NCBI GenBank assembly: GCA_046861655.1
Contig: JBHIAI010000012.1
Span: 1-25,282 of the forward strand
Source of the DNA: Fidelibacterota bacterium
GTDB lineage: Bacteria; Fidelibacterota; Marinisomatia; Marinisomatales; S15-B10
DNA: 25,282 nucleotides
Direction of reading: 5' to 3'
Positions 1,373 to 15,592 of the stretch are shown one piece after another (position 1 is the stretch's first letter; each line of letters begins with the position of its first letter). The notes beneath the pieces were generated by a model. It worked only from the letters and a program-made list of their open reading frames with translations, had not been told where the DNA came from and searched no databases. The position numbers and the translations under genes are program-made.

Positions 1373-2485
1373 ATGATTGAGATTCACCCGGTCCGGACCC
1401 GGCGGGAATTGAAAAGGTTCGTCACCTTCCCCTGGAAGATCTATCAGGGAGACCCCAACTGGGTACCCCCTCTGGTAATGGATCGCCTGAGCTTCTTCAA
1501 TCCGAGAAAAAACCCCTTCTTTCAGCATTCTGAAGCCGACTTATTCATGGCCACCGACAACGGTGAGCCGGCCGGGCGCATTGCCGCCATCCGATACAGT
1601 CGCCACCTGGAGACCCATGGTGACAGCACGGGATTTTTCGGTTTCTTCGAATGCGTCGACGATGCCACCGTGGCAAATGCCCTGTTCGAACGGGCCAGTC
1701 AGTGGGTGGCGGACCGGGGTCTCACCAGGATACGGGGTCCTATGAACTTCACCGTGAACGATGAAGCCGCCCTTCTTGTCGAGGGATTCGACCGGCCCCC
1801 TGTGGTCATGATGACTTACAATCCTCCCTATTATGAAAGACTGGTTACAGGATACGGATTCAAGAAGGCCCAGGATCTATTCGCCTACTACCTCGACGCC
1901 CCTAGATCCATCCCGGAAAGACTGGTGAGGGCCTGGGAGCTCATGGGAAAAAGAGAGGGGATCCGAATTCGCACCATCAACATGAAGGATTTCGATGCTG
2001 AGGTGGAAAGGATTCATCAGATTCATGAACAAGCCTGGGGGGAAAACTGGGGATCTGTTCCCCTGACCCGGGACGAAATCCGTAGAATCGCGAAGGACCT
2101 TAAGTTGATCCTGGATCCCGACCTGGTGTTGATGGTGGAAGACGGTGACAAACCTGTGGGGGTATCCGTGACCCTGCCGGATATCAATCAGGCATTGAAA
2201 TACGCCAACGGGCGACTGTTTCCCGCGGGGCTAGTCAAAATCCTGTGGCATAAGAGAAAGATTGACGCAGTCCGGGTCTTTATCATGGGGGTGGTGAAGG
2301 GGTACCGCCGCCGCGGCCTGGATGCGGCCATGTACTACAAAACCATGGAGGCTGCGCTGAAGAAAGGGTACAAGTGGGGGGAGATGTCGTGGGTTCTGGA
2401 ATCGAATACCCCCATGCGGCGGGTCCTGGACAGACTGGGGATTGAGGTGTATAAGACATACAGGATCTACGACAAGGAGATCTGA
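1373..2485 (+). CDS. YghO-like double-GNAT N-acyltransferase (bacterial ceramide synthase bCerS-like)
   Basis: Family-typical motifs DPNWVPPL, NPFF, GRIAA, GFFGFFEC, RGPMNF, YNPPYY, NWGSVP, a GV...YRRRG acyl-CoA-binding motif, EMSWVLESN and KTYRIY. Confidence 0.75.
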   Translation: MIEIHPVRTRRELKRFVTFPWKIYQGDPNWVPPLVMDRLSFFNPRKNPFFQHSEADLFMATDNGEPAGRIAAIRYSRHLETHGDSTGFFGFFECVDDATVANALFERASQWVADRGLTRIRGPMNFTVNDEAALLVEGFDRPPVVMMTYNPPYYERLVTGYGFKKAQDLFAYYLDAPRSIPERLVRAWELMGKREGIRIRTINMKDFDAEVERIHQIHEQAWGENWGSVPLTRDEIRRIAKDLKLILDPDLVLMVEDGDKPVGVSVTLPDINQALKYANGRLFPAGLVKILWHKRKIDAVRVFIMGVVKGYRRRGLDAAMYYKTMEAALKKGYKWGEMSWVLESNTPMRRVLDRLGIEVYKTYRIYDKEI

Positions 2486-2486
2486 G

Positions 2487-2531
2487 TGATTCGTGGGGCG
2501 TAATTTCATAATCCGTAATGCGTAATTCGTA
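2487..2531 (+). repeat. Heptamer array, consensus TAATNCG (left arm)
   Basis: tgattcg tggggcg taatttca taatccg taatgcg taattcg ta, read directly from the sequence. Confidence 0.85.
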
Positions 2532-2547
2532 GAATCTGGGGTGAAGG

Positions 2548-3015
2548 ATGGACTATGATAAGTGGGTAGAAACCGTTCCTCAGGAGATTACGAGTGATTC
2601 CTTATGGAAGTTGAAGGTATACCGTTTGAGTCTTTTCGTGTGTGATCTTGGGTGGCAAGATGTGACCAAAATATCAAAAGATAAGCGATTACTTCCATTG
2701 TCCGGCCAGTTGTACAGGGCTCTCGGATCAATCAGCGCAAACATTGCAGAAGGTTATTCACGAGGGACCGGCAAGGACCGGGCCCGATTCTATGAGTATT
2801 CCTTGGGATCTGCTCGAGAAGCACGAGACTGGTATCAGAAAAGCCGACATGCAGTTGACGGAGATGTCTTGGATCACCGCATGGGACTATTGAGCCAGAT
2901 TGTACGCATTCTGCTGACGATGATTCCCCAGCAGAGAGGGTACACCGTAAGCGAGTCCCCCGTTAAATTCGAAAGGAGCTTGAAGAAACTATTGCACGAC
3001 ATTCCCATTCTGTGA
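2548..3015 (+). CDS. Four helix bundle protein (23S rRNA intervening-sequence protein / TIGR02436-like)
   Basis: LKVYRLS, QLYRALGSISANIAEGYSRG, RFYEYSLGSARE match the family signature (Q..RA..SI.ANIAEG..R..F...A.GS..E). Confidence 0.9.
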   Translation: MDYDKWVETVPQEITSDSLWKLKVYRLSLFVCDLGWQDVTKISKDKRLLPLSGQLYRALGSISANIAEGYSRGTGKDRARFYEYSLGSAREARDWYQKSRHAVDGDVLDHRMGLLSQIVRILLTMIPQQRGYTVSESPVKFERSLKKLLHDIPIL

Positions 3016-3055
3016 TAATCGACGTCTTCTCCCTCGTGCGTACGAATCTACCCGA

Positions 3056-3097
3056 CGGAATACGGATTACGAATTACGAATTACGGATTACGAACTG
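3056..3097 (+). repeat. Heptamer array, consensus CGNATTA (right arm, inverted relative to 2487-2531)
   Basis: cggaata cggatta cgaatta cgaatta cggatta cgaactg. Bases 3068-3090 match the reverse complement of 2509-2531 at 22/23 nt. Confidence 0.9.
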
Positions 3098-3112
3098 TAT
3101 CTTAGACGCTAG

Positions 3113-4096
3113 ATGAAAAGTCTCGTAACAGGCGCGAGTGGTTTCATCGGCAGTCACCTGGTGGATGCCCTCCTGAAGGAAGGACATGAGGTTACCGCCC
3201 TGGTTCGCCCTACGAGTCCCATGCGGTGGCTGGAAGGTAAGCCCATTCGCCTGATGATAGGCGATGTCCGGGACCCCGATTCCCTGGAAGAAGCCGTGAA
3301 GAACCAGGATTACGTGTTCCACGCGGCGGGGAAAGTGGCCGCCCGGACATTCAGGGAGTACAACGACACCAACCACGTAGGGACCCGTAACCTCATGGAG
3401 GCCATCCTCACCCACCACCCCAACGTTGCCAAGGTCATCTACGTCTCCTCCATGAGCGCCGGAGGCCCCACCACTCCCGATCACCCCCTGACGGAAGAAG
3501 ATCCCAGCCGTCCCATCTCTCTTTACGGAAAGTCGAAGTATCTGGGAGAACAGGCGGTTCTTGAACACCAGGATCGCCTCGATGTGGCGGCCGTGCGGCC
3601 CCCCGTCGTCTACGGACCGCGGGATCAGGGAACGCTGTCCTTCTTCCGCCTGGTGAAGCGCCATATTCGACTCAACCTGGGCCTCCGGGACCGGTATGCT
3701 ACTCTGGTGCATGTGTCCGACGTGGCCAGAGCCCTTATCCTGGTGGCCACCCGGGATAATACCCGGGGCCGGTACTACTATCTGGACGATGGCAATCCCG
3801 TCACAACCTGGCTGGAGCTACAAGACCTCATCCGGGCCGCCGTGGGATCATGGACGGCCACCGTCCGGGTGCCCCTGTCTCTTCTCTTCCTCGTGTCATC
3901 CGCCGTCCACGGCCTCCAGTACGTGACCGGAAAGACCTCCTGGTTTAACTTGCCCAAGTACCGCGAACTGTCCCAGAGGGCCTGGTTGTGTGACGGGGGA
4001 AAAATCCGCCGGGAGCTCGGTTTCAAACCGGCAGTTTCCGTGGAGGAAGGGATCCCGGAAACGGCCCGGTGGTACGATCAAATGGGCTGGCTTTGA
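3113..4096 (+). CDS. NAD-dependent epimerase/dehydratase family (extended SDR); candidate ceramide reductase CerR-like
   Basis: TGASGFIG Rossmann motif, VFHAAG, YVSS, catalytic YGKSK (YxxxK), RPPVVYGP. Confidence 0.85.
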   Translation: MKSLVTGASGFIGSHLVDALLKEGHEVTALVRPTSPMRWLEGKPIRLMIGDVRDPDSLEEAVKNQDYVFHAAGKVAARTFREYNDTNHVGTRNLMEAILTHHPNVAKVIYVSSMSAGGPTTPDHPLTEEDPSRPISLYGKSKYLGEQAVLEHQDRLDVAAVRPPVVYGPRDQGTLSFFRLVKRHIRLNLGLRDRYATLVHVSDVARALILVATRDNTRGRYYYLDDGNPVTTWLELQDLIRAAVGSWTATVRVPLSLLFLVSSAVHGLQYVTGKTSWFNLPKYRELSQRAWLCDGGKIRRELGFKPAVSVEEGIPETARWYDQMGWL

Positions 4097-10710: not shown

Positions 10711-10754
10711 TCCGGTCTCCCGTGTCCGGTCTCCAGTTCCGCCATTCTCCATTT
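10711..10754. repeat. Degenerate heptamer array (TCCNGTN x4, then CCATT x2)
   Basis: tccggtc tcccgtg tccggtc tccagtt, then gccattc tccattt. Confidence 0.5.
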
Positions 10755-10775
10755 CCCCAAGTTCCTGAAGTGACG

Positions 10776-10814: not shown

Positions 10815-11675
10815 ATGATTCGCCTTGGAATCGACATCGGCGGCACCAAGATGGAAGGGATCGCTCTCACTTCACAGGGTGAGGTTATCGCCCGGGAACG
10901 AATCACCACCGAGGCCCACAAAGGATACGAACACGTCCTGAGTCAGGTAGAGCGCCTCTTCGAGAAAATCACCGCGGACCACGACGGGGATTTCACTCTG
11001 GGAATCTGCACGCCGGGAGCCCTATCCGCCGACACGGGCCGGTTGAAAAACAGCAATACCCAGTGTCTGATCGGCCAGCCCCTCAAAGAGGATATTGAGT
11101 CCAGGCTGGGTCATAGGGTGGTTCTGGAGAACGATGCCAACTGCTTCGCCCAGGCCGAAGCCCTCCTGGGGGCCGCCAGAGACTATTCCATCGTATTCGG
11201 GGTCATCATGGGCACCGGCGTCGGCGGAGGCATCTGCCTGGACGGACGCATCCACCGGGGTCTCCAGTACATCGCCGGAGAATGGGGTCACTCCCTTCTT
11301 CATCCTGGTGGGAACCCATGTTATTGCGGCAAGAAGGGGTGTGTGGAAACGTATCTCTCGGGACCTGCTCTGGAACGTCATTACATTCAGCTGACCGGTG
11401 AAGAGCTACCGTTAGAAAAGATCGTCGAACATCCTCCCAAAACGTGGAAGGAAGAATTCCTGGGCAATTTCGGCATGGCCCTTTCCAACGTCATTAACAT
11501 CCTCGATCCGGATGTTGTCGTTCTGGGAGGTGGCGTCTCCAACATCGATTTTCTCTACCACGAAGGACCCAGATACGTGGCGAACTATTGCTTCAACAAC
11601 CGCCTGGAAACACCCATCGTGAAGAACCAACTTGGGGATTCCGCAGGTGTGTTCGGTGCGGCCTGCCTGATGTGA
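10815..11675 (+). CDS. ROK family sugar kinase (Mak/fructokinase-like)
   Basis: GIDIGGTK, ENDANCFA, GTGVGGG, AGEWGH, CYCGKKGCVE zinc motif, LGGGVS, GVFGAA; no N-terminal HTH. The start is moved to ATG 10815. Confidence 0.9.
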   Translation: MIRLGIDIGGTKMEGIALTSQGEVIARERITTEAHKGYEHVLSQVERLFEKITADHDGDFTLGICTPGALSADTGRLKNSNTQCLIGQPLKEDIESRLGHRVVLENDANCFAQAEALLGAARDYSIVFGVIMGTGVGGGICLDGRIHRGLQYIAGEWGHSLLHPGGNPCYCGKKGCVETYLSGPALERHYIQLTGEELPLEKIVEHPPKTWKEEFLGNFGMALSNVINILDPDVVVLGGGVSNIDFLYHEGPRYVANYCFNNRLETPIVKNQLGDSAGVFGAACLM

Positions 11676-11721
11676 CCGTGTCAGTGGGCCCCGCCAAGGC
11701 GGGATCTCCGCTTCGCTCCGA

Positions 11722-11782
11722 CAGTTGGCAGTAGGCAGGGGGAAAAGACAGTAGGCAGGGGCAGCGGGCAGTCAGCGGTGGC
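11722..11782 (+). repeat. Degenerate heptamer array, consensus CAGTNGG
   Basis: cagttgg cagtagg caggggg aaaaga cagtagg cagggg cagcggg cagtcag cggtggc; preceded by hairpin CCCGCC-AA-GGCGGG (11690-11703). Confidence 0.6.
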
Positions 11783-11821
11783 CAGGAAGATGATGAGGCT
11801 CATCAAACGTCCGCAGTCTAA

Positions 11822-11898
11822 CGCATTACGAATTACGCATTACGAATTACGCATTACGAATTACGCATTACGGATTACGCGTTACGAATCACGAATGA
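11822..11898 (+). repeat. 11-unit heptamer tandem array CGNATTA
   Basis: (cgcatta cgaatta)x3 cgcatta cggatta cgcgtta cgaatca cgaatga. Confidence 0.95.
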
Positions 11899-11942
11899 CC
11901 TTACTCTAACAGGAGTTTCCCCTCACACACCGCGGTAGACTC

Positions 11943-12620
11943 ATGGAATATCAGACACCACGCACCCTGGTTCGGTGGTCCGTGGTCCACTCCATTCTTC
12001 TCATGGTGACCACTGTGGCAGCTGCCGCCTGGAATCGTCCATCGATTGTGGCTCTATCAGGAACGGGTTCCCTGCTGAGTTTGACCGCCCTTTACTGGAA
12101 ACGGTGGACACCCGATGGAGTGTTTGGACAGGCCAATGTGATGACGCTTATCCGCCTGGCAGGGGTGGGGGTGCTGGTGACCATAGCCGGGTATGGTCCC
12201 ACAGTCGCGATTCCCCCATTAGGGTTCCTTCTTCTGGCCGGCGACGGCGTTGACGGCTGGCTGGCAAGACGACAGAATCAGGCCTCTGTATTTGGTGAGT
12301 ATTTTGATAAAGAAACGGACGCATTTCTTCTTCTTGTGGTATGCCTCTTGCTTACCACTCAAGGTCTGGTAGGGCCGTGGATCCTGGCCGGAGGCCTTCT
12401 CCGCTATCTGTTTGTGTTGACCGGTCGATCCATAAGGGGAAGAAGGCTCGCCGAAAGGAAAACGAGTCGGGGACGAATCATCTATATCGTGGTAACAGGA
12501 CTCCTTCTTCTCTGCTTTCTCCCTTTGCCCTCCCTGCATTTACCCCTTGCCCTCATGGCCCTGACGTTGCTTATTTACTCCTTCGCAGGTGAGTTCTGGC
12601 AAATCATTTCGACCGGATAG
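11943..12620 (+). CDS. CDP-alcohol phosphatidyltransferase family protein
   Basis: ANVMTLIR and DGVDGWLARR..ASVFGEYFDKETD match D-x2-DG-x2-AR..G-x3-D-x3-D; multiple TM segments. Confidence 0.9.
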   Translation: MEYQTPRTLVRWSVVHSILLMVTTVAAAAWNRPSIVALSGTGSLLSLTALYWKRWTPDGVFGQANVMTLIRLAGVGVLVTIAGYGPTVAIPPLGFLLLAGDGVDGWLARRQNQASVFGEYFDKETDAFLLLVVCLLLTTQGLVGPWILAGGLLRYLFVLTGRSIRGRRLAERKTSRGRIIYIVVTGLLLLCFLPLPSLHLPLALMALTLLIYSFAGEFWQIISTG

Positions 12621-15549: not shown

Positions 15550-15592
15550 CCCTGCCTACTGCCCGTGCTGCTGCCGGTGCCAACTGCCAACT
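15550..15592 (-). repeat. CAGTNGG-family heptamers on the minus strand
   Basis: Minus strand reads agttgg cagttgg caccgg cagcag cacggg cagtagg caggg. Bases 15550-15563 are the exact reverse complement of 11727-11740. Confidence 0.6.

Follow-up and report, generated by a model that had tools for sequence, protein, structure and literature searches.

Inverted heptamer arrays around a four-helix-bundle gene point to a gain-and-loss cassette whose protein may read its own ends

The DNA analysed here, referred to as the window, is a 25,282-nt stretch of a Fidelibacterota genome (contig JBHIAI010000012.1, assembly GCA_046861655.1), which was found, among public DNA runs, in the hydrothermal vent metagenomes of one study. 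Between an acetyltransferase gene and an epimerase gene it carries a gene of the PF05635/TIGR02436 family, enclosed by inward-facing arrays of a heptamer repeat, hereafter called arms. Two further arms, with no gene between them, lie downstream. The features are the following.

1373..2485, + strand: GNAT-family acetyltransferase gene, 370 aa; upstream host gene, context outside the cassette
2485..2532, + strand: left arm, about 6.7 CGTRATN heptamer units, facing inward; outer three degenerate, inner ones clean
2533..2547, + strand: spacer with a purine-rich run, likely the ribosome-binding site of the cassette gene
2548..3015, + strand: four-helix-bundle gene, 155 aa, assigned to PF05635/TIGR02436 by profile scores
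3055..3094, − strand: right arm, about 5.7 CGTRATN units read on the − strand, facing inward
3113..4096, + strand: NAD-dependent epimerase/SDR gene, 327 aa; downstream host gene, context
11680..11790, + strand: gene-less left-type arm, AGTRGGC family, directly after the stop codon of a ROK gene
11821..11899, − strand: gene-less right-type arm, CGTRATN family as at the cassette, about 11 units

A first-pass annotation of the same letters had described inverted heptamer arrays around the four-helix-bundle ORF, and their coordinates and orientation were confirmed: segments 2509-2531 and 3068-3090 are reverse complements at exactly 22 of 23 positions. The left array, said to begin 1 nt after the GNAT stop, does have units from 2485, but they are degenerate there, with a 1-nt slip at 2506, and the array is clean only from 2507 to 2532, a small correction. 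The right array had been placed about 15 nt before the SDR gene, which is close; it ends at 3094, 18 nt before the ATG at 3113. Tandem Repeats Finder (TRF) reported 3.3 copies of a period-7 repeat at 2509-2531 and 5.4 copies at 3055-3092, and the inverted repeat 2505-2531/3068-3094 extends over 27 nt at 93%. The ORF at 2548-3015 scored 59.9 bits with TIGR02436 (cut-off 24) and 52.5 bits with PF05635 (cut-off 33.8); the profile search of this ORF returned PF05635/TIGR02436-type families alone and no recognisable transposase. The gene had also seemed more AT-rich than its neighbours, and it is, with a GC content of 47.9% versus 55.1% for GNAT and 60.8% for SDR. Its GC3 is 0.526 against a genome value of 0.666 ± 0.037, the 0.2nd percentile among 1606 genes from a simple gene caller. 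With a flank inverted-repeat score of 22 the gene ranks first among 1503 called genes, the next scoring 17. An Rfam search of 2300-3300 gave one chance-level snoRNA match far below the gathering score and none that was credible.

The window genome (G000, 2.06 Mb) contains 55 period-7 arrays, versus 0-1 at periods 4, 5, 10 and 11, and none after triplet shuffle. A scan with seven unit patterns yielded 88 arrays of at least three units belonging to six families; 5 of the 88 fall within called genes, and contig ends account for another 9. Exactly 44 are of the CGTRAT type and reach 16 units in length. Only two of these are at the cassette gene; one of the 44 lies inside a called gene, four at contig ends and the remainder between genes. 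In co-directional spacers, 37 of 50 arrays have the left-arm form nearer the stop codon or the right-arm form nearer the start codon. Where a spacer holds several arrays, families are mixed in 15 of 21 cases, typically as the left arm of one family with the right arm of another. Convergent spacers held 17 arrays (45 spacers of at least 40 nt), the 467 co-directional ones 50 and the 102 divergent ones 7, the classes coming from the simple gene caller and one spacer being able to hold several arrays.

Four PF05635 genes are present in the window genome, each with heptamer arrays of its own sequence, inverted at three of them. The fourth, on contig C20, has same-direction arrays on both sides. 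There (G000:C20:3150-3720) the flanking arrays are TCCGGTC, with a separate TTGAACC run upstream, and the arrangement falls outside the simple inverted layout. The gene-less arms at 11680..11790 and 11821..11899 form a chimeric inward pair from two heptamer families: AGTRGGC also surrounds the four-helix gene on contig C85 of the window genome, and the CGTRATN arm stands 45-50 nt before the start of a CDP-alcohol transferase gene. At the orthologous sites of relatives (the ROK spacer) the latter arm is shorter or missing. Within this region, at 11682-11731, lies a 50-nt REP-like element with a central GC palindrome, which has 11 copies in the genome at 86-100% identity and often adjoins heptamer arrays. 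Two more gene-less right-type arms are seen in the window, one of the TCCGGTC family at 10711-10757, before the ROK gene, and one of the CCAACTG/CCTACTG family at 15551-15592, before the methyltransferase gene of the 15591 region.

The family was surveyed with the best 80 of 419 GTDB loci for the subfamily of the window gene and about 130 PF05635 loci among 150 matches listed in relatives, with 55 further matches left out; pooled, these gave 224 unique proteins, 212 near full length and 208 with both flanks. Period 7 and inverted orientation around family members, both suggested for checking by the first-pass annotation, proved enriched in these 208 loci. Period-7 arrays were found upstream in 113 and downstream in 125, and in none after shuffling. 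The inverted score of a gene's own flanks was at least 12 in 152 loci (direct orientation, 34), while 1.5-2.5% of swapped flank partners, taken across or outside the subfamily, reached this score. A scoreable arm pair was present in 149 of the 208, with N-R-T-N-N-N-N as the common unit and a median of four units per arm.

The sites occupied by family members are many and unrelated, and almost all directly follow a stop codon: 61 subfamily loci had 38 upstream and 37 downstream neighbour families, and the upstream gene was co-directional with the four-helix gene in 57 of them. Hosts of the subfamily are mostly Chloroflexota, but also Poribacteria, Rhodothermota and Bacteroidota. Among 61 related genomes the family was found in 38, with up to 26 matches in one, and not found in 23; a search of a phage collection gave two partial matches only. 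Of 10 genomes that have the subfamily gene, 7 showed at least three strict array matches, as did 4 of 51 without it, a comparison in which kin are not independent; three genomes with the gene had none, and G001 and G026 had 9-12 although the subfamily gene was not found in them. The upstream stop codon was in phase with unit bases 3-5 in 34 of 48 loci and out of phase in the window; outside the subfamily, 39 of 71 loci had a stop codon inside a heptamer unit. Targeting of stop codons was considered from this phase and rejected, since TAA/TGA/TAG arrays of period 7 stop all three frames anyway and would show this phase even if no stop codon were targeted. The arms of one AT-rich subfamily branch (L321, L322, L325 and L204; E117, mostly K120) have steps of both 7 and 8 nt and are missed by the strict heptamer pattern.

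Sixty relatives were then checked at the orthologous site, and nine had a close GNAT orthologue followed by an SDR gene. An empty site had been proposed as a sign of mobility, and seven of the nine lack the gene: five have a 9-nt gap or an overlap between GNAT and SDR, and two have a gap of about 100 nt. The other two, G003 and G001, both carry a family member with arms, and the case of a gene at this site without arrays was not encountered. The G003 gene is of the same subfamily as that of the window (60% identity) and has CGTAAT arms; a leftover outer right arm of the ARTGNAA family lies behind it. In G001, which is of the same genus as the window genome, the site is occupied by a different four-helix subfamily with ARTGNAA arms. 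In G003, at L007:3110-3140, the gene is followed by right arms of two families, the outer of which matches the G001 cassette at this site, and the stack is a record of replacement. The empty, same-type and swapped states indicate that gene and arms change as a unit, as expected of the transposase-less unit that had been offered as an alternative in the first pass. Long vertical residence is also possible, because G003 shares both site and subfamily with the window. Upstream, the TPR-GNAT spacer is 80 nt in the window and 650 nt in G003 (L007:846-1495) and 1 kb in G018 (L010:490-1501), without a clear ORF in these two.

In the vent runs, contigs of more distant relatives (about 13% other letters) join GNAT directly to SDR, an empty site. 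Same-strain contigs from four DNA runs of one study, which drop rare variants, contained no cassette-free GNAT-SDR joint, and a search with 11000-12600 in the four runs gave repeat cross-matches only and no excision joint. The right arm is 7 letters, or one unit, shorter in one co-occurring strain contig, and over the stretch around the right arm one strain contig differs by 14 gap letters. Such differences would be expected if the protein itself made or expanded the repeats, binding 7 nt of single-stranded DNA at replication or repair and stabilising slipped loops, with the arrays as a by-product; arrays are also abundant in genomes with the gene. On its own, however, expansion leaves unexplained both the inverted, inward arms of about four units on either side and the joint swap of arms with gene. 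We give it a slim chance as a full account, and it is compatible with a cassette.

The arms follow the protein subfamily. Across 136 subfamily loci fourfold codon sites were 25% identical to those of the window gene, i.e. saturated, while at the same loci arm bases 1, 2 and 3 were identical in 84%, 100% and 99%. With silent sites saturated and arm bases nearly fixed, the arms are under selection that goes with the subfamily. Covariation in the training loci linked residue 123 with base 1 and residues 23, 117 and 120 with base 4, and rules were written down before they were tested on fresh metagenome loci, of which 80 were fetched, 74 had flanks, 71 had arms and 61 were left after removal of those at least 90% identical. 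In these 61, E23 went with G4 in 27/27 loci (3/34 without E23) and Q120 with C4 in 6/6 (0/55 without it). L123 went with C1 in 58/58 and I123 with A in 2/3, the test containing just three non-L cases. On 137 loci phi was 0.85 for E23-G4, 0.89 for L123-C1 and 1.0 for Q120-C4; the best other alignment column reached 0.32, 0.62 and 0.61, respectively, and for each rule 0 of about 20,000 tree simulations reached the observed correlation. Independent pairs on the best tree were about 10.6:0.2, 7.5:0 and 4:0 for the E23, L123 and Q120 rules, and well-supported branches alone left 3, 2 and 1, all pointing the same way and too few for significance.

The window protein has S18, K23, R72, Q117, R120, L123 and M125 at the positions of interest, and its K23, R120 and L123 agree with C1 and A4 of its arms. 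Associations of S18 with A6 (53/64) and M125 with A5 are post-hoc trends found after pooling, and the window protein, with S18 and T6 arms, breaks the former; an I125-T5 trend was no stronger than the best other column. Outside the subfamily, R72 accompanied G2 in 32/38 loci versus 8/33, a count made with no tree correction, and the E23 rule was weak (mean G 0.36 versus 0.22). From this tracking of bases by residues it is very probable that the protein recognises the heptamer that makes up its own arms. The second alternative of the first pass, namely periodic sites bound by the protein, thereby gained rules validated out of sample. We conclude that the two alternatives, a transposase-less unit and protein binding sites, are supported and belong together, so that the earlier account holds in part. 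The same data bear on whether generic slippage repeats merely hitch-hike with a horizontally moving gene, without any recognition. Heptamer repeats are over-represented in many bacteria, according to the accessible text of PMC4692102, but arm bases fixed beside saturated silent sites, and rules that predict fresh loci beyond tree simulations, have largely refuted this reading, to which we assign a negligible probability.

Many arrays lie far from any cassette, and the protein could instead serve the host at these, influencing expression or chromosome organisation, with its own arms being autoregulatory and gain and loss being due to ordinary recombination. The 44 cognate arrays, all but two of them away from the gene and up to 16 units long, fit such a dispersed regulon. 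Orphan arrays also tend to match the resident protein: A4 is present in 178 of 265 orphan units of the window genome, whose protein has K23, and G4 in 27 of 32 units from two chosen stretches of G040, whose protein has E23. A regulatory role was proposed by MacGregor for a similar heptamer, in the part of PMC4679880 available. Yet orphan arrays are not maintained at orthologous spacers, as the ROK site shows, one spacer can contain a stack of several unrelated families, a family member was not found in 23 of 61 related genomes, and within one genus the gene was swapped for another specificity. A regulon beneficial to the host is therefore improbable in our estimate.

The predicted helices of the window protein span residues 23-42, 46-71, 76-98 and 105-130 (model pLDDT 88.9). 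Its residues Q54, S61, N65, E68 and E91 are invariant. Residues 18 and 23 open predicted helix 1, residue 72 closes helix 2 and residues 117-128 close helix 4; read from these helix boundaries rather than from coordinates, the code residues would all be located at one end of the up-down bundle. The structures closest to the model are XCC0516, BT_0352 and Avd, in agreement with a four-helix bundle fold (2GSC, Z 17.5, rmsd 1.9 over 114 aligned residues; 2RLD, Z 16.8; Avd, Z 13.3-13.7). XCC0516 is a pentamer (PMC4990558, consulted in part). RNA is bound by each of the five Avd protomers in a DGR complex, with the same residues used for flipped-out bases (bioRxiv 2023.10.23.563531, in the portion available).

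The leading suggestion of the first pass was that in the operon transcript the arms pair into a long stem which loops out the ORF like a 23S rRNA intervening sequence (IVS). Pairing is physically possible: in an RNA fold of 2480-3120 the arms close an outer stem with z = −3.3 (20 shuffles), a value that shows ability to pair only, the median best arm-arm match is 28-32 nt, and an RNase III gene is present in the window genome. Selection for a stem predicts G-U over A-C mismatches, unit-by-unit matching of variants and an evenly constrained right arm. No G-U excess was found in 131 subfamily loci (G-U versus A-C, 111 vs 120 and 28 vs 41) or in 69 other loci (53 vs 76 and 32 vs 31). The unit-register match was 1523 vs 1459 ± 18 under free permutation, but with edge units fixed it was 1053.5 vs 1048.9 ± 13 (n = 57), and the excess was gone. 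Whichever arm was compared with the other, departures from a uniform partner arm were at 3-5% for bases 2-3 and at 23-38% for bases 6-7. With all three signs absent, an mRNA stem under selection was rejected.

An RNA-level unit can be conceived more broadly: the protein would bind the left arm in the transcript, or the two-arm stem, and control translation or cutting by RNase III, with the ORF looped out as in an IVS. The capacity for a long stem, which resembles the 28-bp stem of the Coxiella IVS, the presence of RNase III, the binding of RNA by Avd, the polarity of cassettes (57/61 loci) and orphan arms (37/50 arrays) with respect to transcription and the position of the left arm just ahead of the gene's own ribosome-binding site are all in its favour. 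It is contradicted by the missing G-U excess, by the loss of the register excess when edge units are fixed, by identical position-specific constraint in both arms and by the 15 of 21 multi-array spacers that mix families unable to pair. We consider an RNA-level unit unlikely, though it deserves some weight. Both arms keep bases 2-3 and drift at bases 6-7, a pattern expected of arms that are read separately and each on its own strand. This favours DNA, and from these symmetry arguments the target is probably DNA rather than RNA. TRAP is a ring oligomer whose subunits each take one short repeat of a single strand. On a duplex each 7-bp site is rotated by about 240 degrees from the one before, so that a flat ring could not be faced by all of them; this geometry, together with the TRAP analogy, suggests that the target is probably single-stranded.

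Signs of a moving enzyme were sought as well. There was no target-site duplication at 119 loci (the longest shared word averaged 3.55 vs 3.51 ± 0.07 permuted), where very short duplications could be missed because arm ends are fuzzy. Eight of 61 genomes yielded a reverse transcriptase, and every one of these eight belongs to the 38 PF05635 carriers (Fisher p 0.02, kin not independent); the single reverse transcriptase of the window genome is on contig C80. Dependence on a reverse transcriptase was rejected: none was found in 30 of the 38 carriers, including those with most copies, these genomes being incomplete. Genes of the GxxExxY family (PF13366, PD-(D/E)XK fold) also bear short tandem arms, with a period of about 8-10 (G000:C46:69070-69447, − strand; L329-L334), and the arms are inverted in several of seven genes inspected by eye. 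GxxExxY accompanies PF05635 in 34 of 38 carrier genomes versus 3 of 23 others, kin again not being independent. It may be a parallel nuclease-fold system or a candidate partner, and the co-occurrence may reflect shared host permissiveness.

Our preferred reading, for which we see about an even chance, is a gain-and-loss cassette made up of left arm, gene and right arm, both DNA ends of which are likely read by the protein it encodes. This protein would recognise the heptamers of its own arms, probably as single-stranded DNA and at both ends alike. It would form a ring, as its pentameric homologues suggest, with one heptamer per subunit and the bundle end carrying residues 18, 23, 72 and 117-128 facing the bases; one ring would take 4-5 units of one arm, the single strand wrapping the pentamer. 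With both ends so marked, an enzyme from another locus would likely move or exchange the unit, and lost cassettes would likely leave their arms, giving stacked, chimeric and gene-less arrays. A 23S rRNA IVS could be the special case of a cassette that landed in an rRNA gene, tolerated, we propose, thanks to the folding of its inverted arms and removal of the insert by RNase III. A wider proposal, put forward tentatively and with somewhat less confidence, is that PF05635 proteins are repeat readers programmable by evolution, rings that take one heptamer per subunit by a simple residue-to-base code and, in marking both DNA ends of their genes, create a new class of transposase-less mobile cassette, that the long-unexplained heptamer repeats of bacterial genomes are their footprints and IVSs accidental landings, and that Avd is a domesticated member.

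The analysis supplies a testable ligand for a family that is very widespread and has two solved structures but whose function is unknown. If true, it would give one cause for the abundance of intergenic heptamers, the origin of ORF-bearing 23S IVSs and the ancestry of Avd. The residue-to-base rules specify point mutations with predicted switches of specificity, and a small helical ring with a readable code would be of interest as a nucleic-acid-binding module. The arrangement of gene and arms is real and widespread and, as a system, apparently undescribed, its pieces having been published separately. In the literature covered, with subscription journals and supplements outside its scope, a link between PF05635 genes and flanking heptamer arrays was absent beyond a remark on Coxiella, and the accessible portions of PMC8700078 and PMC10053308 held nothing on repeats.

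That remark concerns Coxiella burnetii, whose S23p IVS is, like that of Leptospira, one of the 23S rRNA IVSs that hold a protein of the same family in their loop between terminal inverted repeats of about 28 bp (PMC4990558). In Coxiella the 28-bp stem is cut by RNase III and tandem GACAGAT heptamers precede the ORF in strain-variable number; the available part of that source deems the RNA the relevant part and the ORF decaying, and draws no connection between heptamers and protein. The window cassette shares the complementary termini but lies between protein genes, not in 16S or 23S rRNA, and selection for pairing was not detected in its arms.

Intergenic heptamer repeats of bacteria also include the cyanobacterial STRRs. 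Others are GGGAATC of Xanthomonas and GGGGA(C/T)T of Nostoc (PMC4692102) and TAACTGA of Beggiatoaceae, which forms runs before start codons (PMC4679880). The Xanthomonas and Nostoc repeats resemble cassette arms in being intergenic inverted pairs of about four units, with one form after stop codons and its complement before start codons (PMC4692102). As far as their accessible text goes, both papers propose quadruplexes or binding by S1, Csp or Csr, and no helix-bundle protein (PMC4692102, PMC4679880).

TRAP, the attenuation protein, has a different fold, a 5-nt period and an RNA target and is a fixed host regulator, so that the analogy is one of geometry only. Insertion sequences and MITEs share terminal inverted repeats with the cassette, whose repeats are of the tandem-array type and come without target duplication or transposase. 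Avd (4DWL, 8UB7-8UBE) has the same fold as the cassette protein at 10-13% identity; it is encoded with a reverse transcriptase and template and variable repeats, neither of which is beside the cassette gene, whose neighbours are GNAT and SDR. RAYT-REP/REPIN systems consist, in the accessible part of PMC3116915, of a gene in single copy with its own repeat family on either side, in several flavours per genome and with dispersed intergenic copies, and there as in the window genome unrelated repeats are stacked in one spacer. RAYTs are IS200-like (HUH) tyrosine transposases and REPs are palindromes (PMC3116915), whereas the cassette combines a helical bundle with tandem heptamers; unlike RAYT, its protein is all-helical and without a known catalytic motif and its gene sits at many different sites. 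Taken together, the cassette is likely organised most like RAYT-REP, with a mode of binding that is likely Avd-like.
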